DNA from: Reclinomonas americana ATCC 50394
Lineage: Eukaryota
Direction of reading: 5' to 3'
Assembly (NCBI GenBank): GCA_048213135.1
Contig: PS015141.1
Coordinates: forward strand, 1 to 45,495
Length of the DNA stretch: 45,495 nucleotides
Part shown: in pieces, positions 16,391-35,341 of the stretch
How the letters are laid out: each line of letters opens with the position of its first letter
How positions within the stretch are numbered: the stretch's first letter is position 1
The notes under the pieces: generated by a model
The model's input: the letters and a program-made list of their open reading frames with translations, nothing else
Database searches by the model: none
Told to the model about the DNA's origin: nothing
Position numbers and translations under genes: made by a program

Positions 16391-18765
16391 TCACTTTTCC
16401 TGTGGTCGTTCTGCTTCTTGCGGCGTCTTTTGTTGTTGGGCTTGGGCTTTGCGGCGCGAGGCGTTGGTGATGCCGGCGACAAAGCCGGTTTTCTCCTTCT
16501 TTTCTTGGTCGATGAGGATGCTGCGCTTGGTGATGTCGGTGCGGCCGAAGCCCATAGTGTCGAGCGGGGCCTTGGCCATCAGGCCGCTAAAAGGGAAAGG
16601 GGTATGAGGGGTATGAGGAGAAGGGGGGAGGGGGGAAGTGGGAAGATGGAAGGGGGATGAGGTAAGAAAGGGGTAAGAGGAAAGGGGGAGGGAAAAGGAA
16701 AGGGAGGATGGAAGGGGGGAGATGGAAGGGGGGAAGGAGGAAGTGGGCAAGGGAGGATGAATTTCAAGGCGAGATGCACAAAGAAACAGGAGATGCATTC
16801 AGGGAGACAACACGTGTTACAATCGGTGCACTCGAGGAGGCAAAACACGAGGCATGAAGAGGCTGAACAAGACGACTGGAAGGGAGGAATGGAAAAGGCA
16901 CGGAGTGATAAAGGTCGAGCAAGACAAGGCGCACAATGCGATGGACATTGATTCATCAAAGACAGGAGGATGAATATCAAGACGAGATGCACAAAGAGAT
17001 GCATGCAGGGAGACAACACGTGTTACAAAGGGTGCACTCGACGAGGCAAGACAGGAGGCATACTGAGGCTGAACAAGACGACGGGCACGGCGGTGGAGGA
17101 TGTGCTCAACGAGGAATGGAAAAGGCACAAGAGTAATAAAGGTCGAGTAAGACAAGGCGCACAATGCGATGGATCACAAGATAATCGGGCAGTGCGTGGA
17201 CGCAGAGTGCAGCAAAGCATGACGAGATGCAGATGGTGAAGAGCGCGATGGATGAACTTAAACACGAAGCACAGCACAGCTGAGAAGACGACAAATTGCG
17301 ATGCGACACTGACTTGGTGAATGGAGAATGGTGCAAGGAGAATAGCAGAGCGTCGTGACTCAAGGCAAGAGGCTCAGCCAGTGATATGAACACAAGAGCA
17401 AAGCGTGATGGAGAATGCATTCGACGAGGTAAGGCATGACGCGCGGACCACGATGTGTGATGCAAAGAGTACAGTGCAACAGAGGACGCACTGCTCTAGA
17501 AAGAGGTGCCGAGCTGTCGAAGAACAGCCCAGGATGAACAAAGCACTGAGGCAAGACGAGGACGACAAGAGCAATGCGTGATGGAGAATGCATTCGATGA
17601 GGGAAGGCATGAAGCGCGGACCACGATGTGTGATGCAAAGAGCACTGCTCTAGCAAGAGAGGTGTCGAGCTGTCGAAGAACAGCCCAGGATGTAACCAGG
17701 GAGTGAGTGGGAGAGAGAGAGAAAAAAGAATGATAGAAAGAAAGAAAGAAAGAGAGAGAGAGAAAGAGCACAGCACCGAAAGCAACGCGAAGAGCACGGC
17801 ATCTCTCTTATCTCCCTCCTTTCCCATTATGCCCTTCTCCTTCCCCGATCCTACTCACCGCTCCATCCGACACTGCAGATACGCCGCATACTGCTCCCGG
17901 CAATGCGAGCTGACATTGTTGTGCGCCTCCAGGCACTCCACCACAGCCTTCATAAAGTTCTTGCACTCGCCCAGGTGATCGAGTGGGAATGAGCCGCGCT
18001 CCGGGGGTTTGGGAGGGCCTGGTGGGGAACGGGAAGGGTGAGGGAAGGGGAAGGGGAAGGGAGAGGGAAGGGGAAGGGAAGGGAGATGGAGAGGGAAGGG
18101 GAGGAGGGAAGGGGAGAGGGAGGGAGGGAGGAGGGAGGGGAAGAGGGAAGGGGAGAGGGAAGGGAGATGGAGAGGGAAGGGGAGAAGGGAGTGGGGGAGT
18201 GGGGGAGTGAGTGCGTGCTGCTGCTGCGTTGCTACCCCTCGCGCTTTTCTTCTCTCTCTCTTTCTCTTTCTCTCTCTCTCTATTTCTTTCTCTCTCTCTC
18301 TCTTTCCTTCCACAAACACGAAAGAACGCGCCTGCACAGAGAGAAAGAGAGAGGGAGAGAGAGAGAGGAAGGAAGTGAGTGTATCTTTCACATTCTCTCA
18401 TCCTCCCTCTCTGTCTTTCACACACACACATTCTCTCTTTCTCTCGCACGATGTCTCTCTATTCTCCCACATACATACAAACGCACAAACGCGAGAGGGG
18501 CAATGCACACAGACAGAGGGAGACAGAGAGTGACAACGAGAGTAATTCTGATGCTTCGTTGCTCCCTCTTTCACACTCTCCTGCACTCCCCCTCTCCCTC
18601 CTTCTCCCACACACACCCCAACACACCTGCACTCAAACGCGACCCATAGTTCATTGTGTGTGTGTGTGTGTTATGTGTGTAAATCGTACACGCCAATTTG
18701 CGAGCAACTTCCCTTGGCGCCAACTCACTGCGTTTCCTTCTTTCAGTTTGCGTCGAGGCACTCAT
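16391..18765 (-). CDS. COX19: Cytochrome c oxidase assembly protein COX19 (twin CX9C), 3 exons: 18765-18729, 18018-17859, 16586-16391
   Basis: Spliced MSASTQTERRKRSPPKPPERGSFPLDHLGECKNFMKAVVECLEAHNNVSSHCREQYAAYLQCRMERGLMAKAPLDTMGF contains the hallmark PP.RGSFPLDH.GEC, CX9C-X10-CX9C and CRM.RGLMA motifs. Confidence 0.95.
16750..17695. repeat. Two diverged tandem duplications (~210 bp and ~175 bp) inside COX19 intron 2
   Basis: ~16752-16945 resembles ~16965-17175; ~17390-17535 resembles ~17565-17690. Confidence 0.75.
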
Positions 18766-18886: not shown

Positions 18887-21800
18887 ATGGATTCGTGGCT
18901 CGTGGATGTCTCGCAAGATTCTGCGCATCGAGATGATGGTTTGTTTTGAGAGGGAGTGTGTGTGTGTCTCTGTGCTTGTATGAGAGAGAGAGCGCGCGAG
19001 AGGAGTTGCCAACGCAGAATCACTGATGCAAAGCACTCATTTCAATGAGAACGCACACTACAGAAGTTGTGGTTTTCGCACACTGTCACTCCTGCACTCT
19101 TTTTATGCAGAGGCTATGTAGTGTGTGTTCACTTGCTTGGCGTGTTCTTTGCGTCGGGTGGGCGGGTGGCAACTCGACATGTCCACCCGCGCGAACTGCT
19201 CTTCTTCCGCCGGAGTTGTTTGATTTGCCATCTCCTTTCGCGCTTGCCTCCATGCGTTTCCCGCGCTCCCTTCTTTCCCTCCCTCCCTCTTTGTGTGTCT
19301 CTCCGCCTCGTGTGCTCTCTCACACTTTGAATCTCTTGTTCGTTTTTATTCCTTCTCCCAGCTCCTTGTATGCACGCGCACGTGTGTATCTCTTCATTTA
19401 TCTCGCTGACCATCGGCACTCCCCCTTCCACTCGTGTTTGTTTTTATGGCAATGATTCAATCCACGTTACGCAAACCACCAATTTCACTCACTCTTTTTA
19501 TTTGTTGCACAGATGGCCGCCATCATCATCACCACGGATTCCTGCACGGCGCGCTCGGATTGCATCACCACGACTCGCACAGCGGCATGGTGATGCCGTC
19601 GTCGCCGAGCACGTGTGAGGGACTGGCGTCGTTCTTCCCCTCGTCGCCGACCATGCACGGTGACGGTGGTGCGCCGCCGTCGCTCACCTCGCCCCTCCTG
19701 CTGGCGCGCGGCTCGTCGGCCTTCCAGCCGCCCGTGCTCACACTGCCTCCACCACCACCGCCACCACCGGCGCTACCTGTATCCTCATTACCTCCGCCAC
19801 CACCGCCTCCGCCACCGCCCTCCATGTTCCCCATGTCGGTCATGTCCATGGCGGTGCCGTTCGCGGTGGAGGCACCGCCACCGCCGCCACCAATCATGCC
19901 GCCACCATTTCCGGTGTCCATGGTGTCACCGAGCGGCGGCGTGCCACCGGTGGACTACCTCGATCTGCTGTCGCGCGAGGTGCTGGCGCACCTGCAACAC
20001 GATCCGTCCAACCTTCAGCAGCTGGTGGGTCACGTGGCGCAGCGCTTCGTCGCCGACCCATCCGCCAAGTCCGAGCTGGCCGGCGAGTTGATGCGCTGCA
20101 TGCAGACGGGGAAGCGCGGTCCGCGCAACCCCGCCACCCCTGCCCGCCAGCGAGCCGCACGACGGAGGCCAGCACCGCCGCCACTTCCCCCACCACTGCC
20201 ACCGCCATATCTGTCGTCCGCATTCCTGCCGGAACCGCCACCACTGCCGTCATCGCTTTCCATGGAGCCTCCACCACCACTGCCGCCACCACCACCACCA
20301 TCATCATCGCCCCACGACGACATGCACACGCGGCGGCAGCAGGCACGGGCGACTGAGGACGTCGACTTGAGTCTGATCGAGGCGTCGGTCGTCGTCGCAC
20401 CGGCGCCGGAGCCGTCGCCAGCCGAGCTGGAGCAGGTGCGAGCGGCCGAGGCGAAAGTGGCGTCGCTGCTGGGCACGCGCAACAAGCTGCGGCAGAGTTT
20501 GCGCGAGTGCCTGCGTGACATGCTGCTGGGGAGTGCGCCATCGAGCGGCATGACACTGCACATTTTTCCGTTTGCGGATGAGGATGAGCTGGAGAATATG
20601 GTGCGGCATATGGCGGGGATTCCGGTGCAGGTGCCGCTGCATCGGGTGGAGGGGGCGGTGGGGTTGTTGAAAAAGGTGATGTTGGGGAAGGGGGGGCAGA
20701 GGGGAAGGCGGAAAGGGGAAGGGGGATTAGAGGGGAAGAGGGCTCAGCAGAAAGAGGACTGGAATGCAATAAGATGATTGCGTTTATGCATATAAAGTTA
20801 TGTAGCGGGAGTTTGAATGCTGAATAGAGGAGATAGCGAGTTGAGTTTTCAAGTTGCAGTTGTCGCTGTGAACTCTCAGACTGTTTCTGGAGTAATCATT
20901 CAGCACTCGTGTTCTAAGGTGGCACTGGATGATCGTGTGATGCGGTTAGGTTCTATCATGTTGCAGTTGTCGCAATTGTAACCAGTCCGCAGTGCGTAGA
21001 CAGAGCAGGTAGAGCGTGTGTAGAAAATGCAGCACAGATAACGCAAGATGAATGTGTTGTCAGCTGTCATCGGTTATCGCTGTTGTAATCAGTCAGCAAT
21101 GCGAGTGGCACAAGGAAGGCAAGACGCTGCAGGTTGAGCAAGTGAAGAGGATGCAGTACTGAGAAGGGTAGGCAACTATGAATGTGTTGTCAGCTGTCAT
21201 CCACGTGCAGTTGTCGAAGTTGTAGCCAGTCAGTATTACGTGCGGCACAAGGGAGAAGGTAGTTTGCTTGCACCGTACTCGAGGACTATTGCAGTTGTAG
21301 CACGTCAGCATTGCAACGCAGATGATAGTGTGAAGAGGATGTTGTGTAGAGGAGAGTTTTCGGTGCAGTTGTCGCAGTGGTAGTCAGTCAGCAGTGCGAG
21401 TGGAACAAAGAAGGCAAGACTGTTGAGCGAGTGAGTAGGATCAGTGGTGACAGTGCGCCTGCCACACTCCTCCTTTCCCCTTCATGTCTCACTCATCTGC
21501 TTCTTGGCTGCAGGCCAACGACGTCCTTGGCCTCTTGCGTCGGCAGGCCGCCCGCTCATACGTACCACCACCGGCCGACTGCACCGAGGCGGTGTTGGTC
21601 AAGCACGCACACCAGGCGGCACTCGACATTTGCAGTGCGCTCGGAGCTCCGTGGGGTGCCGTCGGACTGGCGCATGTTGGGCGACCGCTGCAGACATTTG
21701 TGCTGCGCTTCGTTGCGTCGTCACCCACTGGCGATGCTGTGAGTATCCGCACTCATCCCTCTCCCACGAAAATGCAGACCAACATTGCCTTCCAGCGGCA

Positions 21801-22599: not shown

Positions 22600-24123
22600 A
22601 ACAACAATAACTTTTACCAATCCAAACAGCAATGCGCAACATAGCTGCATGATGATCACCAACAACAACAATTCATTCACCAACAAACAAGCAACAGCTG
22701 TCTTGATGACCAAGTTCAACCGCATCAATAAGAAGTGCGACAACTGCAGGGGCACTTTGGTTGGGTGTGCGCCGTCGCTGTCGCTCCCGACGGGCAGCAC
22801 GTTGTGAGCGAGTGTAGTTACCGGCGGATAGGAAAAAAGTGCTCCTACTGGACAGAATTGAGAAAACCAAGAACAACAACTTTACTAATCCAAACAGCAA
22901 CACAGCTGCATGATGANNNNNNNNNNNNNNNNNNNNNNNNNNNNNNNNNNNNNNNNNNNNNNNNNNNNNNNNNNNNNNNNNNNNNNNNNNNNNNNNNNNN
23001 NNNNNNNNNNNNNNNNNNNNNNNNNNNNNNNNNNNNNNNNNNNNNNNNNNNNNNNNNNNNNNNNNNNNNNNNNNNNNNNNNNNNNNNNNNNNNNNNNNNN
23101 NNNNNNNNNNNNNNNNNNNNNNNNNNNNNNNNNNNNNNNNNNNNNNNNNNNNNNNNNNNNNNNNNNNNNNNNNNNNNNNNNNNNNNNNNNNNNNNNNNNN
23201 NNNNNNNNNNNNNNNNNNNNNNNNNNNNNNNNNNNNNNNNNNNNNNNNNNNNNNNNNNNNNNNNNNNNNNNNNNNNNNNNNNNNNNNNNNNNNNNNNNNN
23301 NNNNNNNNNNNNNNNNNNNNNNNNNNNNNNNNNNNNNNNNNNNNNNNNNNNNNNNNNNNNNNNNNNNNNNNNNNNNNNNNNNNNNNNNNNNNNNNNNNNN
23401 NNNNNNNNNNNNNNNNNNNNNNNNNNNNNNNNNNNNNNNNNNNNNNNNNNNNNNNNNNNNNNNNNNNNNNNNNNNNNNNNNNNNNNNNNNNNNNNNNNNN
23501 NNNNNNNNNNNNNNNNNNNNNNNNNNNNNNNNNNNNNNNNNNNNNNNNNNNNNNNNNNNNNNNNNNNNNNNNNNNNNNNNNNNNNNNNNNNNNNNNNNNN
23601 NNNNNNNNNNNNNNNNNNNNNNNNNNNNNNNNNNNNNNNNNNNNNNNNNNNNNNNNNNNNNNNNNNNNNNNNNNNNNNNNNNNNNNNNNNNNNNNNNNNN
23701 NNNNNNNNNNNNNNNNNNNNNNNNNNNNNNNNNNNNNNNNNNNNNNNNNNNNNNNNNNNNNNNNNNNNNNNNNNNNNNNNNNNNNNNNNNNNNNNNNNNN
23801 NNNNNNNNNNNNNNNNNNNNNNNNNNNNNNNNNNNNNNNNNNNNNNNNNNNNNNNNNNGTCGAGATGGCTAATGCTAGCACAACAAACCACTGCTAGCGC
23901 TTTGCCTGCTTCACGGATCCGGACCCGGCTTTGCTTTGTTTGCTTGGCTCATGACCTTTTCCCGAATTCTGAAGATCGCAGTTCTTTACTTGTTCGAAGC
24001 TCCGAGAGCGAGCACATAAACACGGAACCTGCTGCTGCCTCAAGATTGGTGTCTGTGTTGATGTTTCCGGATATGGTTGAACTTGGTCATCAAGACAGCT
24101 GTTGCTTTGTTTGTTAGTGAATG
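22600..24123. mobile_element. Repeat cluster with direct and inverted copies around an assembly gap; possible non-autonomous element
   Basis: 22603-22655 is directly repeated at 22872-22916. 22674-22721 is near-identical to the reverse complement of ~24075-24123. Confidence 0.4.
22735..22830 (+). pseudogene. Isolated degenerate WD40 repeat fragment
   Basis: VRQLQGHFGWVCAVAVAPDGQHVVSECSYRRI matches the WD40 pattern L.GH..WV.AVAV.PDG..VVS.S.D.TI. It lies between repeat copies next to a gap. Confidence 0.6.
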
Positions 24124-24714
24124 GAATGCGGCTGCTGTGTAAACGGCAACACTTCTGCATCCTCCTCTTGGATCTCAGAGTCTTCCTCTGCATTTCTTGG
24201 CCAAAAGGCTGGAATCCGCAGCTGCAACGATTGCGAATGCAAACTTCTCCACGTATTCCGGACCTGAACTCGCGATCATCATCTAGTGCTGTTTCAGTGC
24301 CTACCCCTCTCGTTTGCTGGCTTGCCGCCGTCGACGTCGCGACGTCCGACCCCAAATTCCACCGTCCAGTTGGTCGGCGAACGCATCATTGCATGCATGA
24401 GAAGGGGGCGCGACGACAGTGAGCCTCCCGTGTCTGCACCCACTCGCCGCTTCTCACCTGACCGACCATATCAGTTTCGTGCTCGGGTTCTTGCTAGCTC
24501 GCACTTGCACACTAACGCATTCTTCCTCATTCTCTCTCTCTCTCTCTCTCTCTNNNNNNNNNNNNNNNNNNNNNNNNNNNNNNNNNNNNNNNNNNNNNNN
24601 NNNNNNNNNNNNNNNNNCCTCCTCCTCCTCCTCCTCCCCCTCCTCCCCCTCCTCTTCCTCCCCCTCCTTTCCTCCTCTCTTCTCCTCATCCTCCTCCTCC
24701 GTCCCCCTCTTCAG

Positions 24715-27700
24715 CACTACGCACCCCCCCACTGGCGACCACGTGGCGGCGCAGACGGCTCCGAGTCACGCACGCCTCCAGGCACCTCCACCACGGCAGC
24801 CGCCCCCGGCAATGCTGCTCGCACCCAGGTAATCCCTTTCCTCCTTTCCACCCTCCCCCTCACCCGCATCTCATCTCCCGCGCCAGCAGCGCGCCGTTCG
24901 TCGCGTTCGCTTCGAGGGCGACGCCGATGCCGCGGTGCAGAGTGCGGCAGCGGGCGACGTGGACACGAGTGCTGACGACGACGAGCTGCGCCTGCTGATG
25001 ATGGTGCGACGGCTGCGCGATGTGTATCGTCAGCGATCGGGGGCGGCCGCGTCGGCGCTCCGGTGGCCCGACAAGCTGCGCGAGACGGAGCAGTTGGCGC
25101 ACAGTGTGCGGCTGCTGGTCGAGGGCACTGGCGGGGACTCGTTACTGCACGAGGAGTCGGCGTTGGACGACAGCCTCATGCGACGAGCTGCGCAGACGCC
25201 TTTGCGGCTGGTTGGCGCGGATGAGTTCCACTCGGCGGTCGGTGGATTGGGTCGTGAGCTGAAGGTTAGAGGCCGACTACGATCTCTCCCTCCCTCTCCT
25301 TCCTCTGACACATTCGCCGGCTGTAGGAGACCGTGACGACCTTGTCATCCAGCGTGCAAAGCCGATTGGGTTCGCTGGAATCGAGCTTGCAGGAGCGCAG
25401 TTCTCATTCTCGTGACGAGAGGTATGTTGTGTCTCACGCCAGCCTTCGCAGTGTGGTGCTTGTCTCTCTCATGTTCCCTCGCAGCGAGCGACTGCGTGCC
25501 GATGTGGTGGAATTGCGCCGCGAAGTGGCACATTTGCGCGGTCTGGTGGAGTTCTCCGCCGCCGCCGTGCAGCAACAACAGCAGCAACAGCAGCAGCAAC
25601 TGCAACAGCAGGCGCGACAGATTCAGTTCATATCACCGCTGGCGGCCACCCCCGCCGGTCTGAGTTATCAACAGACGCCCGGCTTCGACGTGGCGCAGTC
25701 GACGGCCGCCGCGCTGTTTGTCAATCCTGCCGGTTCCATGTCGGCTCCCGTTACTGTTACTCTGGGAGGCGGTGATTCGATGCGGTTCGCCAATTGCTCT
25801 GTTCCTGACTTGCGATACTGCGTCTGCTGACTTCAGGAGATGATGCACAGCGCGCCGATCAGTGCCAGTCCAGCTGTCACACAGGTGTGTGAAGAGCGAT
25901 TGCATTCATTTCCTTCTTTGATGCTCACTGCCATATCCCGCCAGGTGCACCGTCCACCATCGCCGTCGCCGCGACCGCCACTCGCGAACGGGTAATGCTC
26001 GTCATCACAGTCGCCAAATTGAACTCCTCTCATTACTTCTCGCACAGCACTTCCACTGTACAGCCGACATCGACCGCTCAAACTCCATCATCGCCGCCCA
26101 CACGGTACGTGCATCACCAAGGATGACGACAGATGTGACGCTCATCCCGCATTTGCAGGCGCGATTCGTCGCCTTCACAGCGGCGACCTGCCCCACCGGC
26201 TCGTTCTTCCTTCCCCACGTCGGCAGCAACAGCGATGAATCCGCCTCCCAGAGCCACACCACCAGTGGAGAGCACTCGGACTGCTGAGAGCGAGACGACC
26301 AAGTCGGAGAGCAGTGCAGCGGATGACAGCAAGAGCAACGGCTATGCCAACAATAGCACAGGGTTGCGTCGGCGCAGAAGATATAAGCGCGGCTTATCAA
26401 TCTCTGTGTCGATTCTCGCTGTGTCGCTGTGTCGCTCATCGCTGTGTCGCTCATCGCTGTGTCGCTCATCGCTGTGTCGCTCCTCTCGCTGTGTCGCTCG
26501 CTCATCGCTCTGTCGCTCATCGCTCTGTCGCTCATCGCTCTGTCGCTCATCGCTGTGTCGCTCATCGCTGTGTCGCTCATCGCTGTGTCGCTCATCGCTG
26601 TGTCGCTCATCGCTGTGTCGCTCATCGCTGTGTCGCTCATCGCTGTGTCGCTCATCGCTGTGTCGCTCATCGCTGTGTCGCTCCTCTCGCTGTGTCGCTC
26701 CTCACGCTGTGTCGCTCCTCACGCTGTGTCGCTCCTCTCGCTGTGTCGCTCATTGCTGTGTCGCTCATCGCTCTGTCGCTCATCGCTGTGTCGCTCCTAT
26801 CGCTGTGCCGCTCCTCTCGCTGTGCCGCTCCTCNNNNNNNNNNNNNNNNNNNNNNNNNNNNNNNNNNNNNNNNNNNNNNNNNNNNNNNNNNNNNNNNNNN
26901 NNNNNNNNNNNNNNNNNNNNNNNNNNNNNNNNNNNNNNNNNNNNNNNNNNNNNNNNNNNCTCGCTGTGTCGCTCCTCTCGCTGTGTCGCTCCTCTCGCTG
27001 TGTCGCTCCTCTCGCAGTGTCGCTCCTCTCGCTGCGTCGCTCCTCTCGTTGTTGTCGCTCATTGCCGATTCCTATGCGCACAGCACTATCGTACGGTACA
27101 TTGGCGGAAGTGCTGTGACAGCATTCCCTGAGCGGTCTTCGAGCGCCACTGACCTGGCGACACCGGCTGCACGTTTCGTTGTTGCTGCTTTCACGCCGCC
27201 TGTACTTTTGCTGACTTTCCAGCGCTGCTTCAGCCACTGGAGATGATGGACACAGTTCGAATAGCAGCGTCGTGAACCTGGATGAATGGATCGGCGGTTC
27301 AGGTCTGCTCTCGTGCACCTTTCCTCTCTGCTGGACGCTATTGTCGCTGGCCCTCATTTTTTGTGTCATTACAAAAAGGTGTCGGTTTTGACATTCCGTC
27401 GTTTGAGGACATTACGAGTGTTGTGACAACGTTGCGTGCGCTGCGTCGCTGTCGTTTTCCCTCATCGATCACAAGGCTGATGCATTGCTTGTTTACAGTC
27501 CATTGACCACCATGGATGGTTCCGTCAACGAATTCCGTGCTTCTCGACCTGTTTCATCTGCAGCGGGTGGTGCGTGCTGGCTCTGCTATCTTGCCTCCTG
27601 TATTATCCTGACCATGATACGTGCAGCCACTGCACGGCCTCCCGCGCTTCCGACACCGGCTGTGGAGACAGTGCCGGCTGCCCGTCCTCCGAAGCGCGCC

Positions 27701-30700
27701 GCTCGCATTGAAGAGGAATCCGATGCCGTTGCGTTACTGTGCCTAGTGGATGCGACGGGACTTTCTTTCTCATTCTCGTTGTGGTGTAGGAGTTTCGCGA
27801 ATCGCTGAAGAAGACGCTGTCGCAGCAGAGTGATGACCCGAAGCTCAAAGAGTCGAAGCTCATGTCATTCTTTGCCAAGCTCAGCACCGGCGAGTTCCAG
27901 CTCGAAGGCCGAGATGTTGCGTCCGTCGTCTTCTGTGTCAGTTTATTGTTGTGTATTCATTGGCGTTTGCAGCTTGTGTCAACACCCGTGTCGGCGCCGG
28001 CTGTGCCCATGCATCAAAAGTGGTTTGACGATGAAGATGGGAATGGCTCAAAGCAGGAGAAGACTGCACAGGCGCTGGCTCGTTGCGTGAAGAGGAATGA
28101 GGGGGGATAGGGGAATGAGAGGGGGAAAGGGAGGGTGAAGATAGTCTTTCAAAGAGAGGTAGATATCCGACTTGTGAGTGCCAAGCTGGTTAACGGCGGT
28201 TGTGAGAGTTTGGACAGGTTGGTGAAGAGGTTGTACTTGTGAGAGCAAGTGAGACTGAGCGCCGGAGACTTCATGAAGAGGGTCTCGGGAGTGGAAGAGT
28301 GCGTTGGAACGCGATACAGCTCCAGAGTCGGTAACGAGGTTGTGCTTGCGAACGCAAGTAAGACTATGCTCCAGAGATACAGTGAAGAGGCTCTCGGAAT
28401 GGGAGAGTGAGTTGGAACGAGAGAAACTGCCTGAGTTGGTGAAGATGCTCTTGGGTGCACAGAGTTGAAAGAATTGCTGAAGAGTCCAGAGCATGGCGAT
28501 GAGGTTATGTTAATGTGAGTAAGAGTGGGATTGTGCTTGAAAGACTTGGAAGGCAGACTCTCGAGGTGAAAATAGACCGAAAAGAATCCTGTACGGTTAT
28601 TTTGTGGAAGAGAGTGAAGTTGCGAGTGAGTGAGAATAACTTGAGAGTGCCAACAGATTGTGAGATTTGCAGAATCAAGAGAGACATACAAAGACAACTG
28701 CATTGTGCGTTACTCTCTCTATCCTCTCTTGGCTTTCAAGTTTGCTGTTCCTCGCCTTTAACCTCCCCTTTTTGCACACGCAGGTGACCTCGACGCGTCT
28801 CTCGCTGCCGCCACGGCTGCGAATTCAGTCACCACCACCGTATCCACCGTCACAACCACGACTACCACCACTGCCACCATCGCCGCCGCGACGGTGGCCA
28901 CACCAACACCGCTGCGACCTGTGGATGCAGCTGCTGTGGGAACTCCAGCGCGCGTTGAAGAAGTGGAGGCATCATTTGCCGTATCGTCGTTTAACCAAAC
29001 GCAGGATGCGGGCGGCACTCACGGTGACGTGTCGGTGACCGGCATGTCACCGTCGGCAGGGTCGATTGAGCAGGATTCGCTGCCGTCTGCTGCACAGCCC
29101 GCTGCTGGTGTGGCGAGGAGAGCGGCTCCTGGACCGCTGCGCGTGGATCCGTTGGTGTGTGCTTTGTCGTGTGTGTGTTGTCGTATATAATATTTCATAT
29201 GTGCGCTTGTATCACTCTCCCCGTCGCATTCTCTCTCTCATTCTCGCTTTCTCTTGTTCTCCCTTTATCTCCTCGGTTTCTCTCTTTCTTGTTCTCTTTT
29301 GTTCTCGTTCTCACTCATTCTCTCGCTCTCGCTCTCGCTCTCTCTCGCTCTCGCTCTCTCTCTCGCGCGCTCTCGCTCTCGCTCTCTCTCTCGCGCGCTC
29401 TCTCTCTCGCTCTCTCTCGCTCTCGCTCTCTCTCTCGCGCGCTCTCTCTCTCGCNNNNNNNNNNNNNNNNNNNNNNNNNNNNNNNNNNNNNNNNNNNNNN
29501 NNNNNNNNNNNNNNNNNNNNNNNNNNNNNNNNNNNNNNNNNNNNNNNNNNNNNNNNNNNNNNNNNNNNNNNNNNNNNNNNNNNNNNNNNNNNNNNNNNNN
29601 NNNNNNNNNNNNNNNNNNNNNNNNNNNNNNNNNNNNNNNNNNNNNNNNNNNNNNNNNNNNNNNNNNNNNNNNNNNNNNNNNNNNNNNNNNNNNNNNNNNN
29701 NNNNNNNNNNNNNNNNNNNNNNNNNNNNNNNNNNNNNNNNNNNNNNNNNNNNNNNNNNNNNNNNNNNNNNNNNNNNNNNNNNNNNNNNNNNNNNNNNNNN
29801 NNNNNNNNNNNNNNNNNNNNNNNNNNNNNNNNNNNNNNNNNNNNNNNNNNNNNNNNNNNNNNNNNNNNNNNNNNNNNNNNNNNNNNNNNNNNNNNNNNNN
29901 NNNNNNNNNNNNNNNNNNNNNNNNNNNNNNNNNNNNNNNNNNNNNNNNNNNNNNNNNNNNNNNNNNNNNNNNNNNNNNNNNNNNNNNNNNNNNNNNNNNN
30001 NNNNNNNNNNNNNNNNNNNNNNNNNNNNNNNNNNNNNNNNNNNNNNNNNNNNNNNNNNNNNNNNNNNNNNNNNNNNNNNNNNNNNNNNNNNNNNNNNNNN
30101 NNNNNNNNNNNNNNNNNNNNNNNNNNNNNNNNNNNNNNNNNNNNNNNNNNNNNNNNNNNNNNNNNNNNNNNNNNNNNNNNNNNNNNNNNNNNNNNNNNNN
30201 NNNNNNNNNNNNNNNNNNNNNNNNNNNNNNNNNNNNNNNNNNNNNNNNNNNNNNNNNNNNNNNNNNNNNNNNNNNNNNNNNNNNNNNNNNNNNNNNNNNN
30301 NNNNNNNNNNNNNNNNNNNNNNNNNNNNNNNNNNNNNNNNNNNNNNNNNNNNNNNNNNNNNNNNNNNNNNNNNNNNNNNNNNNNNNNNNNNNNNNNNNNN
30401 NNNNNNNNNNNNNNNNNNNNNNNNNNNNNNNNNNNNNNNNNNNNNNNNNCTCGTTCTCTCTCGTTCTCGTTCTCTCTCGTTCTCGTTCTCTCTCGTTCTC
30501 GTTCTCTCTCGTTCTCGTTCTCTCTCGTTCTCGTTCTCTCTCGTTCTCGTTCTCTCTCGTTCTCGTTCTCTCTCGTTCTCGTTCTCTCTCGTTCTCGTTC
30601 TCTCTCGCCCTCACTCGCTCTCACTCGTTCTCGTTCTCTCTCGTTCTCGCTCTCTCTCGCTCTTTCTCGCTCGCTCTTGCTTCTCTCGCTCTCTCTCGCT

Positions 30701-31813
30701 CTCTCCCTCCCTCGCTCCCTTTTTCTGCTTTCCTTCCCCCTTCCCTCTTGCGCGCCGTCTCACCTCTCCCCACCCTGCAGGTCTCCTCACCAGTTACCGT
30801 CCCTCAAGTGTCTGCCGCTTCACTGGAGGCGTTTTTGCGTTTTGAGAGCTACAACTTTGGCGCCGACGAGAAGTATGTCACTGGGCTGCAGGTACGCCGC
30901 CGTGCCATGTACTGCGCTATGGATGAGAACTGCGTGCACTCAGCTGTGTGTGTCCGCAGAAAATCCGAGCTGCCGGCACACTCGACCGCCTCATGCAGAG
31001 TCTGCAGCACGACGAGGCCAAGGCGTTGAGATTGTTGCAGATAAAGTATTTTGTGAGGTGAGGAGTTGAAGATTGTCTTCGTGTCTGTGCTATCTGGGTG
31101 TGGAATTTGTATTCGTGCATGAGATTGAGATTTGTTGTGTGTGCGTGTACGCTCTTGTGTTGTGCATGTGTGTGTTCTTCTCTTGTGTGTGATCGTGTGT
31201 GTCTCTCACCCCTTTTCCCCCTCCCAGACACGTACAACCAATGGACCTCGACGAATATCAAACATGGCGCTCGGCAATGGACGCTCTGGTGGCCGCCGGT
31301 GGTGGCAGTGACAGAGGGGACGTGAGCGACGTTTCTGACGGGGAATTCCGGTTGGCGAGACCCCCGAGCGCTGCGGCGAGTGCACGAGCGGGCCCGTCAC
31401 CAGGCACTCGACAAGATGAAGGAGACGCACGGTCGAACGGCACGACAGCACCGGTTGCGGCACAGCCAGCTCCGCAAGGTGCACAAGAGTCGAATAGCAC
31501 GGCGCCGTCAGGTGAGAGAAGTGCGCAACTGAGATGCGTGACGTCGCCTCACATGTCGTGTTATGTGTGTAGCGAATGGTACGGCGGAAGCGCCAGCGCC
31601 TTCAAGCGCGAAGCAGAGCACAGTGCCAGGTATGTCTCTCTCTCTCTCTCTCTCTCTCNNNNNNNNNNNNNNNNNNNNCGTCCGTACCGTACGTACGTAC
31701 GTTCGTTGTTGTTGTGTAGTACGGTACGGTACGGTACGGTACGGACGGACGACGACGACGACCGTACGTACGACGACGACGACGACGACGACGACGACGT
31801 ACGTACGTACGTC

Positions 31814-31878
<65 letters not shown>

Positions 31879-32814
31879 CTACTACAGCCTCTTGGTGCCC
31901 TCACACACTCGCACTTTCTCTGCTCACTTCAGTCGCTCGCTTCAGTCGCTCACGCACTCAGTCACTCACTGCATACTCCGTCTCTGTCTCTCTTTCTCTC
32001 TCGTTCTCTCACTCCTTCACTCTGTCAGTGCATCCAGTCTCTGTTTCTCTCTCACACGCTTTCACATTTCACTCACGCAGTCGCACAATCCCACCCCCTC
32101 TTCTCCCGCCTCCTTCTCCCTCCCTCGCTTCTTCCCTCTGTCTCTCTCTCTTTCTCGTTCTCTCGCTCACGCCTCTCGCTTTCATCCATTTCACTCTGCC
32201 ACTGCATCCAGTCTGTCCTCTCTCTCACACTTTCACGTTCTCGCTCACTTTCTCTCACTGCAGTCGCTCACTGCGCTCACTCACTACATTCTCTTTCTCT
32301 GTCTCCCTTTCTCTCACGGTCTCTCACTCACGCCTCTCTCTTTTATCCACTTCACTCAGTCACTTTATCCAGTCTCTGTTTCTCTCTCTCACGCTTTCAC
32401 ATTCTCACTCACTTTCTCTCTCCCATGTTCTCTCACTGCAGTCGCTCACTGCATTCTCCTTCTCTGTCTCTCTTTCTCTCTCGTTCTTTCACTCACGCCT
32501 CTCTCTTTCATCCATTTCACTCAGTCACTTTATCCAGTCTCCGTTTCTCTCTCTCACGCTTTCACATTCTCACTCACTTTCTCTCTCCCATTTTCTCTCA
32601 CTGCAGTCGCTCACTCAATCACTCCTGTATTCTCCCTCTGTCTTCCTTTCTCTCTCGTTCTGTCACTCATGCCTCTCTCTGTCATCCGTTTTACTCAGTC
32701 ACTTCATTGAATCTCTGTTTCTCTCTCTCACGCTTTCATTCTCACTCACTTTCTCTTCTCCCACTTTCTCTCACTGCAATCGCTCAGGTAATCACTCACT
32801 GTAATATCCTCCTC

Positions 32815-32852
<38 letters not shown>

Positions 32853-33447
32853 CTCTCGCCTCCGTGCATCTCTTTCATTCATTTCAGTCACTCTCACTTT
32901 CGCTTGTTCTCACTGTGCTCACTCGTTCGCTCACTTACTTACGCTCTCCCACCTCTTCTCCCTCCCTCTCCCTTGACCCTCCCTCTCCACCTACTGCACA
33001 GCGCAAGACGACATGACGCAACACCCCTACTCATCGCGCTTCATCGACGTGTTGACGAACCTGTCGCAAGGCAAAGTGCCGAGCGACGTGCGCGTGGTGG
33101 ACGACAAGCCAAAGAATCCACACCAGCAGCCGTCGCGATCCAAGTTGACGCGCCGACCGAATCCGTGGGAGAAGAAGAAGCAGCAGCAGCCTGCATCGCA
33201 AAAGCAGGAGCCGGAGAGCACGGATGAAGTGGAATCGCTGGCCGCTCTCGGCGAGGCATCGACGCCGATGGCAGTGGACTCGGACGACACGACGCCGTTG
33301 GCGGGTGAAGATGATGGCGAGCAGACACCGCCGCCAGCCAAGTCGGTGCTTTCGTTTGAGGATATCGACAGCGCGGCATCGAATTCGGTGACGGCGGCGC
33401 TGCTGGTGGACGCGGAGCAGGGTGCAAATGGTGGTAAAAATGAATGA
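24715..33447 (+). CDS. Large PEX39-like peroxin (~20 exons, 5' end unresolved): coiled coil, PEX7-binding-like segment, PEX39-type helical domain and KPWE-type domain
   Basis: Exon 27790-27915 gives DDPKLKESKLMSFFAKLSTGEFQLEGRD. Exons 30781-30891, 30960-31057 and 31228- give AFLRFESYNFGADEKYVTGLQKI...LRLLQIKYFVRHVQPMDLDEYQTWR. Last exon 33002-33447 gives PYSSRFIDVLTNLSQGKVPSDVRVVDDKPKNPHQQPSRSKLTRRPNPWEKK. The exons join in frame, with one ambiguous junction near 25780-25850. Confidence 0.72.
26405..27060. repeat. Intronic 15-18 bp minisatellite (TCGCTGTGTCGCTCA)
   Basis: Directly visible tandem array interrupted by a gap. Confidence 0.92.
29310..30700. repeat. Intronic CT/CGCT and 16-mer (CTCGTTCTCGTTCTCT) arrays spanning a gap
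   Basis: Directly visible on both sides of the N run. Confidence 0.85.
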
Positions 33448-33477: not shown

Positions 33478-35341
33478 TTAACGCTTGCTGAGCTTGCGCG
33501 GCGGTGGCGGTGGAGCGTCGAGGTGCGACGCCAGATTGAATGGATTGACCGACGCGTCAAACATGGAGCCGAAAGGCGAGGGGCGCACCAGAGGCGCCAT
33601 GCCACCGGCCGCCGACGCCGCTGCAGATATCGCCGACGGCTGCATTGCACACGACGACGATGAAGCGGACGACGGCGACGAAGGTCTCAACATGGCGCCT
33701 GCAAAGGCCGACGCCGGATTTGGCATCACAAACGCCTCCTCAAAGTGCCGCTTCCGCTGCTCGGCAAACGGCGAGTAGCCGGCCGATGTGAATGCCGGTG
33801 GGAGGCCGAGGTCGCTGCCGACGCCGCCACTGCCACATGCACCAACGGCAGCAGCAAATCCAAATCGTGGCGGCTGCCGCTGGAAACCGAGACCAGTGGC
33901 CGCCATGCGTGCTCGGACAGGCGGCACGTTCTCGTCGTCACGCATGGCATCCACACCACTTCCGCTGCCGCTGCCACTTCCACCAAGCTCCTCCTCCTCC
34001 TCTTCCTCTTCTTCTTCTTCTCCTCCGTGGCCGCCAACAGAGTGTCGCAGTGGTCGGTGGTGGCGATGATGGTGAAGATGGCGGTGATGGCGAATGTCAT
34101 CGTCTTCAAACTCGGCGTCGTCCTCCACTCGATCGTCACTGCTGCCATGGTGACTGCCATCCATGTTGCCAGCAGCAGCCGCGGCCGCAGCTGCCACCAC
34201 AGCGGCGGACGTACCGCCGGCAGTGCGCCGTTGCACGGGTCGGCGCACGCGCCCATCGGAAATCTCCTCCTGGTCTTCTTCTTCTTCTTCTCCTTCTTCC
34301 TCTTCTTCCTCCTCGTCGTCGTCGGCCATGGTAAAGTCTTGCACACCGCGGCGAATGGAGCCAATGGTGGCTGCCGCGGAGGTGGCGGTGGAGGCGGCGG
34401 GGGGGATGGAGGATGCGGTCGTGGGGGTGGTGGCGGAGGCGGAGGAGGAGGGAGGACAGGGCTGGGGGGGAAAGGGGGAAGGGGAAGTGAGGGGAAGTGA
34501 GGGGGAAGTGAGGAGAAGGGGAAGGTGAGGGGAAGGGGAAGTGAGGGGAAGGGGAAGGGAGAAGGGGAAGGTGAGGGGAAGGGGGAAGTGAGGGGAGAAG
34601 GGGAAGTGAGGGGGAAGTGAGGGACAGGGGAAGTGAGGGAAGGGGGAAGTGAGTGAGGGAAAGGGGGAAGTGACGGGGAAGGAGGAGGTGAGGGGAAGGG
34701 GGAAGTGAGGGGAAGGGGGAAGTGAGGGGAAGGGGGAAGTGAGGGAAGAGGGAAGTGAGGGAAGGGGGAAGTGAGGGGAAGGGGGACGTGAGGGGAGGGG
34801 GGCAGTGAGGGAAGGGGGAAGTGAGGGGAAGGGAAGGGGAAAACAAGGTGAAGAGGGGATACAAAGAAATGAAGAGGATTAGGAGGAGGGAAAGAGGGAG
34901 AGCGTGGGGTAATAGAATCAAGATGAGGGGAACGAGAAAGCGTGTGGGTAATAACACATCGGTCAAGGGTTGAGGGTGGAGAGAGACACTGATTACACGC
35001 ACACATACATCAAGGGTTGAGGGTGGAGGAGAGACACTGATTGCACACACGCACACACCAATCAAGGGTTGAGGTGGAGAGAAACACTGATCACAATACA
35101 CCGATCAAGGGTTGAGAGTGGAGAGAGAGACATTGACAGGACACTCAACGATCAAGGGTTGAAGTGAGATCCAAATTGTGCATGCACATAGATGAAGGAT
35201 TTAAGGTGGAGAGAGACACTGATCACACGCACACACACCGATCAAGGGTCGAGGGTGGAGAGACACTGATCACACCGATAAAGGGTTGAGGGTGGAGAGA
35301 CACACTGATTGCACGCACACGCCGATCAAGGGTTGAGGGTG

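Follow-up and report, generated by a model that had tools for sequence, protein, structure and literature searches.

The peroxin PEX39, named only in 2024-2025, is a cytosolic chaperone of PEX7, the receptor of type 2 peroxisomal targeting signals (PTS2). We analyzed a 45,495-nt stretch of draft eukaryotic DNA (positions 1 to 45,495 of contig PS015141.1, assembly GCA_048213135.1, Reclinomonas americana ATCC 50394; hereafter, the window), which contains nine runs of N and abundant CT-rich repeats. With slightly better than even confidence, we read one locus on its plus strand as a single spliced gene for a PEX39-family protein of ~400-570 residues. This protein would comprise, in this order, a PEX5-type box predicted to bind PEX7 (Box 1, segment 1), an HTH_76 domain (segment 2), and the PEX39 helix followed by an NPWE anchor (both in segment 3), with the box serving as a second, co-receptor-like clamp on PEX7. 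Because three lineages of environmental sequences hold all three parts in one chain, we interpret the locus as encoding a PEX39-family protein that carries a PEX5-type box in addition.

These relatives were collected with the segment 3 exon alone. A HMMER search of 1.84 billion representative sequences (E ≤ 0.001) with this last exon retrieved 23 proteins (best E, 1.2e-7), which, along with two close relatives found afterwards, make up a set of 25. An alignment-based search returned four proteins, three of them already found and the other a new close relative, P0025. Nine members of the set are PEX14-type proteins with Pex14_N and KPWE_dom domains (P0003, P0004, P0008, P0009, P0011, P0016, P0017, P0021, and P0023), and another nine are short or fragmentary and show only the KPWE domain (P0001, P0002, P0005, P0006, P0013, P0014, P0018, P0019, and P0022). 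Two proteins combine the KPWE domain with the PEX39 region known as region X (P0007 and P0020), and the remaining five exhibit Box 1, region X, and the KPWE domain, and were counted as three lineages (P0010; P0012, P0024, and P0025; P0015). In all three lineages, the parts follow each other in a single chain as they do in the window, with Box 1 5' of region X, and none of the Box 1-bearing relatives has PEX14 domains. Proteins retrieved by segment 3 alone also matched the other two segments, as revealed by BLASTP alignment of the Box 1 exon with P0010 (E 5e-7) and P0012 (E 9e-7), and of the exon at 30781-30891 with P0012 (E 1e-6). P0012 is 433 residues long, and its 1,299 coding bases nearly fill a contig of 1,506 bases, so that the three parts are there encoded by one essentially uninterrupted coding sequence. 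Scans of metagenome DNA for the P0012 and P0015 loci found no relative.

In the window, the three peptide segments lie on the plus strand, in the order and at the places given by an initial annotation of this DNA, and their profile matches, described below, exceed what chance would yield. Segment 1 corresponds to the open piece that starts at 27790 and contains GT at position 27916. Segment 2 is spread over 30781-30891, 30960-31057, and 31228 onward, and segment 3 is contained within 33002-33447 and terminated by a stop codon. A gene model was drawn by eye from the sequence, and its junctions and frame were verified by script (Table 1). The shortest version starts at the ATG in position 27512, joins all the exons in Table 1 except the two optional ones, and encodes 407 residues. 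In-frame inclusion of 27973-28086, or of 27973-28081 together with 28784-29154, yields longer variants of 445 and 567 residues, respectively. Since every junction in the model is GT..AG and in frame, the single spliced open reading frame (ORF) proposed in the initial annotation is possible, and it agrees with the arrangement of the relatives. Its predicted size of more than 1000 residues found no support, given the lengths of the models from ATG 27512 and upstream ORFs devoid of peroxin domains. In the alignment, the acidic end of putative exon 2 falls opposite the acidic run situated ahead of the box in P0012 and P0025. The Box 1 exon has an alternative end at 27936 (donor GTCAGT), and the coding status of 28784-29154 is uncertain because several frames on both strands are open there.

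Table 1. Predicted exons of the PEX39-like gene and the assembly gap within it (window coordinates)
Feature	Position	Strand	Basis and remarks
Putative exon 1 (ATG, ACCATGG context)	27512..27569	+	Read from sequence, in-frame model; donor GTGCGT at 27570; predicted
Putative exon 2, Pro/Ala-rich with terminal acidic run	27627..27727	+	Weak donor GTTGCG at 27728; predicted
Box 1 exon, PEX5-type PEX7-binding box (predicted)	27790..27915	+	Core PKLKESKLMSFFAKLSTGEFQLEG at 27838-27909, 24 residues
Optional in-frame exon	27973..28086	+	Donor GTGAAG at 28087; unspliced frame ends at TAG 28108-28110; weak evidence
Optional low-complexity exon, Ala/Thr-rich	28784..29154	+	Contains ATG 29044, start of an alternative stand-alone model
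Assembly gap, 995 N	29455..30449	.	Within a long intron; could hide an exon
Region X / HTH_76, first part, FLRFESYNFGADEKY	30781..30891	+	BLASTP E 1e-6 to P0012; region-X profile E 0.0026; GT..AG
Region X / HTH_76, middle part, ends IKYFV	30960..31057	+	Region-X profile (hmm 28-52), E 0.51; alignments
End of region X (MDLDEYQTW), then low-complexity linker	31228..31511	+	Phase-1 donor GTGAGA
Last exon: amphipathic helix (~33031-33072), linker, NPWE (33160-33171), acidic tail, stop	33002..33447	+	Pfam KPWE_dom at 33025-33174

The Pex7-binding motif of PEX5 spans 24 residues with conserved Lys2, Ser6, Phe11, and Gly18 (PMC6203080, Fig. 1 legend). All four residues are present in the Box 1 core, PKLKESKLMSFFAKLSTGEFQLEG, with exact spacing. 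This four-residue signature occurs once in the six-frame translation of the window, as compared with a mean of 0.09 occurrences in 100 block shuffles. When aligned by eye with the Guillardia theta Pex5 box, EKLAQSELRDFIAAVNDGSFQFDN (PMC6203080 supplement), Box 1 was identical at 9 of the 24 positions. A Box 1 profile built without the row of the window recognized the ORF at 27790 as its sole match among 954 six-frame pieces (E 1.2e-8). Residues of the Box 1 exon that are invariant across lineages include P17, K18, S22, and F27, and K2, S6, and F11 of the box are kept in all four lineages, i.e., the window and the other three.

As judged by comparison with its relatives, segment 2 is the PEX39 region X, that is, HTH_76 (PF25871, Pfam 38.1). 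Membership in this family rests on the precomputed HTH_76 annotation of P0010, P0020, and P0025, on the BLASTP match of the first region-X exon to P0012, and on a region-X profile derived from six database proteins only. The two exons of the window ranked first and second, and collinear, among the 954 pieces scored with this profile (E 0.0026 and 0.51). HTH_76 and KPWE_dom also occur together in fungal clusters of 163-209 residues in a protein atlas. Exons 30960-31055 and 31229-31510 yielded no BLASTP alignment with P0012, and the Pfam scan assigned no family to the separate region-X exons, PF25871 never being reported by the copy of Pfam used. The earlier attribution of segment 2 to PEX39 is thus upheld by the P0012 alignment and the database-only profile, which identify it as region X.

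As for segment 3, the last exon matched all 48 profile positions of the Pfam family KPWE_dom (PF17733, formerly DUF5572) with an E-value of 1.9e-8 and 34.7 bits, above the cut-off of 27. According to the available parts of PMC12339391, this domain is common to PEX39 and the C-terminus of plant-type PEX14. Its helix, SRFIDVLTNLS, aligns with that of all the relatives and has a hydrophobic moment of 0.59, as compared with a protein mean of 0.28 (SD 0.15). A PDB sequence search with the last exon revealed no peroxin, and word-indexed protein searches with this exon and with the Box 1 exon yielded no matches.

A number of observations weigh against the reading of the locus as one PEX39-family protein with a PEX5-type box, and the first of them concern the box itself. 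G18 is kept in two of the four lineages and is not conserved in P0010 or P0012. Scanning with hmmscan found no family on Box 1 (E ≤ 10) or on P0010, P0012, and P0015 (E ≤ 1) in the Pfam copy used, in which PEX18_PEX21_C (PF25098) is expected but its presence was unconfirmed, and PDB sequence and profile searches with Box 1 retrieved no peroxin. The initial annotation had counted a missing profile hit on 27790-27915 as a reason to abandon its proposal, and no Pfam family matched this segment; its proposed PEX7-binding segment has the four-residue signature and the likeness to the G. theta box. The locus could be one gene in which Box 1 is a motif specific to the family and serves a different function, resembling the PEX5 box by chance or by convergence of short amphipathic helices, an explanation that we consider unlikely. 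It would fit the non-conservation of G18, the lack of profile matches, and the small size of the box (~24 residues), as well as a lead in a language-model atlas from Box 1 to the PEX18_PEX21_C cluster that scored 0.75, below the level regarded as meaningful by the tool. It would, however, have to account for four exactly spaced signature residues plus five more identities to the G. theta box, for the invariance of K2, S6, and F11 in every lineage, and for the presence of known PEX7 binders in the other parts of the protein. Also in its favor, hhalign overlays Box 1 on the PEX39 helix in register, without significance (probability 0.5%, E 0.11, against the helix-KPWE region); the idea of Box 1 as a detectable duplicate of this helix was dropped.

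Other points in this series affect the continuity of the gene, since a single transcript with Box 1, region X, and the KPWE exon is predicted from genomic sequence. Both donors adjoining segment 1 are weak (GTTGCG), which makes its borders the least certain of the model, the remaining donors being ordinary (GTACGC, GTGAGG, GTGAGA, and GTGCGT). If unspliced, the Box 1 frame runs to the stop at 28108-28110, and ATG 29044, which is in frame with the donor at 29155 and the acceptor at 30780, could begin a separate gene. A small upstream gene ending with Box 1 at TAG 28108 would then be followed by an ordinary PEX39 gene initiated at ATG 29044 or within the N gap, as relatives without Box 1 are known (P0007 and P0020, the latter N-terminally incomplete). 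We doubt this two-gene arrangement, because Box 1, region X, and the KPWE domain occur in a single chain and in identical order in three other lineages, no stand-alone Box 1 protein appeared among the 25 retrieved, and a direct splice from 27915 to 30781 stays in frame. The 995-N gap lies inside the gene, between Box 1 and region X, and, the assembly being a draft with nine runs of N, it might have brought two unrelated contigs together. Such a scaffolding artefact is extremely improbable, with order and strand identical to those of the relatives and similar CT-rich repeats of period 16 on both flanks of the gap, which favor a collapsed repeat over a misjoin.

The last of these adverse points are the anchor and the origin of the relatives. 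In the window, the anchor sequence is RRPNPWE, which retains PWE and has N instead of the expected K or R, whereas K occupies this position in 24 of the 24 database relatives having the motif. According to the available text of the PEX39 paper, binding is generally weakened when single KPWE residues are exchanged for Ala, W being the most and E the least sensitive. NPWE may be genuine, with the extra box possibly compensating for it, or may reflect a single-base error in the assembly. Hence, the designation of segment 3 as a PEX39 part holds for the KPWE domain, of PEX39/PEX14 type and above the Pfam cut-off, and fails for the (R/K)PWE motif. In addition, the three comparison lineages are environmental sequences without taxonomy.

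The initial annotation had also envisaged that one polypeptide may supply both PEX7-binding activities, and a full role as a PTS2 co-receptor is not supported. No [WF]xxx[FY] motif was found in any of the three gene models, and neither was a conserved N-terminal Cys motif; with 5' ends that are predicted, the models of 407 and 567 residues contain no Cys, and that of 445 residues has one internal Cys. Likewise, no TPR, Pex14_N, PEX14 central, or other peroxin domain was detected in 199 ORF pieces of the window (11 + 133 + 55), in which N gaps could hide exons. Lacking WxxxF/Y motifs, the N-terminal Cys motif, TPR, and Pex14_N, the predicted protein would be neither PEX5, nor a Pex20-like co-receptor, nor a PEX14 fusion, the latter having been rejected because Pex14_N was not found in the window. 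A true co-receptor, Pex20-like or PEX5-like, fused to PEX39 and possibly extended beyond 1000 residues by upstream exons is, by the same token, very unlikely, all the more so as P0010 begins right at its box. Some leeway for it is left by the acceptor at 27498/27499, whose location just 5' of ATG 27512 makes further 5' exons possible, by open plus-strand frames at 24.8-26.4 kb, and by the 220-residue N-terminal extension of P0012.

We then compared the preferred single PEX39-family protein with known systems. It has in common with PEX39 (human C6ORF226, yeast Yjr012c) an amphipathic helix, a linker, and a PWE anchor across the full Pfam profile, as well as the absence of a PEX14 part. It differs in NPWE instead of (R/K)PWE, in its much greater length, and in the presence of region X and the extra PEX5-type box. 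PEX39 proteins of fungi, invertebrates, and fish with region X, compared by architecture, also show HTH_76 followed by the KPWE domain, whereas the window protein has Box 1 5' of region X. With the PEX5/PEX5L box (G. theta, T. gondii, human, and Arabidopsis), Box 1 shares the spacing of K2, S6, F11, and G18. In PEX5, however, this box lies between the WxxxF/Y motifs and the TPR, and the window models have neither. In PEX18, PEX20, and PEX21, the PEX7-binding domain is C-terminal. Like the window protein, these co-receptors combine the absence of TPR with a PEX7-binding region (a candidate one in the window), but the window protein shows no N-terminal Cys motif or WxxxF/Y, and the Pfam copy used reported no PEX18_PEX21_C match on it. 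Moreover, WxxxF/Y motifs precede the PEX7-binding domain in co-receptors, whereas the box of the window is N-terminal. Finally, plant and "chromalveolate" PEX14 proteins with a C-terminal KPWE domain, the type to which nine of the 25 retrieved proteins belong, resemble the window protein closely in this domain, in which G. theta Pex14 also terminates. They differ from it in Pex14_N and the PEX14 central domain, readily found in those nine relatives and not found in the window.

In a survey contained in the available parts of PMC12339391, PEX39-like sequences outside opisthokonts are fused to PEX14. The initial annotation did not recognize the architecture as described, and no description of it was found in the PEX39 literature as far as this is accessible. 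A PEX5-type box in PEX39 is unmentioned in the available parts of PMC12339391, PMC12173945, PMC13591263, PMC12956874, and PMC12904895; "region X" or a grey box in Extended Data Fig. 1a of the survey might already cover it. Literature queries on PEX39 with alveolate terms, on HTH_76, on PF25871, and on "DDPKL" with PEX5 returned nothing relevant. T. gondii PEX5 is reported to retain its own box at 414-437. The presence of PEX7 in coccidians is disputed, since it is given as lacking in a table footnote of PMC7710942 and as present in Table 1 of PMC5737649, which lists PEX7 for T. gondii, N. caninum, Eimeria, Cyclospora, Hammondia, and S. neurona. If a protein like that of the window belonged to a coccidian, its box and that of PEX5 would compete, and it would bear on the disputed PTS2 pathway of these parasites.

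According to the available parts of PMC12339391 and PMC12173945, PEX39 binds PEX7 from below through its (R/K)PWE motif, its linker runs in a side groove, and its amphipathic helix overlies the PTS2 on the top face. This PEX7/PTS2 surface is where the co-receptor box binds as well, the helix being displaced from it by the PEX7-binding domain of the co-receptor, and PEX5 F215, Pex21 F236, and PEX39 L21 occupy equivalent positions, again according to the available text of both papers. By analogy, the NPWE anchor of the window protein would grip the bottom of the PEX7 propeller with the linker following the side groove, and on the top face the PTS2 helix would lie beneath one of two elements, either the PEX39 helix or Box 1. 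Because top-face elements of both kinds are present, we propose Box 1 as a second, co-receptor-like clamp, which might strengthen or prolong the hold on PEX7 and its cargo until the PEX5 box displaces it. Binding to PEX7 and competition with PEX5 are both inferred from these known complexes. As the protein lacks the portions that a receptor uses for docking and recycling, it should remain cytosolic and would not carry cargo across the membrane.

A more speculative scenario, which we regard as rather unlikely to hold, is that Box 1 is an ancestral part of PEX39 and that PEX39 and PEX5/PEX20 share a PEX7-binding module. In these protists, one soluble protein would then occupy PEX7 simultaneously at its bottom face, along its side groove, and at the site of the co-receptor. 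As a built-in pseudo-co-receptor, it would gate the handover of PTS2 cargo to PEX5, and it could replace this function in lineages where PEX5 has lost its box. The preferred architecture would put both competing elements in one natural chain, a ready-made probe of the competition between helix and box, and it points to a possible evolutionary relationship between the PEX39 helix and the PEX5 box. It would also add a free PEX39 architecture, not fused to PEX14, which this eukaryote would share with protist-like sequences from the environment.

Of the seven relatives with region X, five (P0010, residues 42-46; P0012, 264-268; P0025, 270-274; P0015, 70-74; and P0007, 14-18) have a conserved pentapeptide, FDE(I/L)Y or FDNIY, between Box 1 and this region, in a survey that left out P0024; P0020 does not have it. 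Its F-x-x-x-Y shape is the form of di-aromatic PEX14-binding motifs. In the window, its place is occupied only by WFDDED, at ~28020-28040 in the optional exon 27973..28086. If FDE(I/L)Y binds PEX14, it might tether free PEX39-like proteins to PEX14, of which the plant fusion would be the covalent counterpart. The long N-terminal extension shared by P0012, P0024, and P0025 begins with MGGNNS, which we take to resemble the N-myristoylation consensus.

Elsewhere in the window, a tRNA-Lys (CTT) at 1698-1773 on the minus strand is the only Rfam/ARAGORN match. The only other Pfam match above cut-off is a CHCH domain in the ORF piece at 17858-18397 on the minus strand (E 7.2e-7; 29.6 bits, cut-off 27.2). 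A Pro-rich open frame of 455 residues without a Pfam family, at 19410-20774 on the plus strand, is probably part of a separate upstream gene. It is followed by a WD40-repeat fragment (22732-22810, plus strand) that runs into a 942-N gap; this was rejected as a candidate for PEX7, because its match to WD40 is generic and falls short of the Pfam cut-off (E 7.8e-4). Long CT-rich minisatellites, whose periods are 15-17, 16, and 165-174, are located at 26404-27060, 29231-29454, 30450-30705, and 32136-32831, and the N gaps at 24554-24617, 26834-26959, 29455-30449, and 31659-31678 adjoin minisatellites or simple CT/CCT repeats. A long low-complexity ORF without a Pfam family at 33481-34878 on the minus strand ends ~35 bases from the stop codon of the PEX39-like gene, which suggests a convergent neighboring gene.

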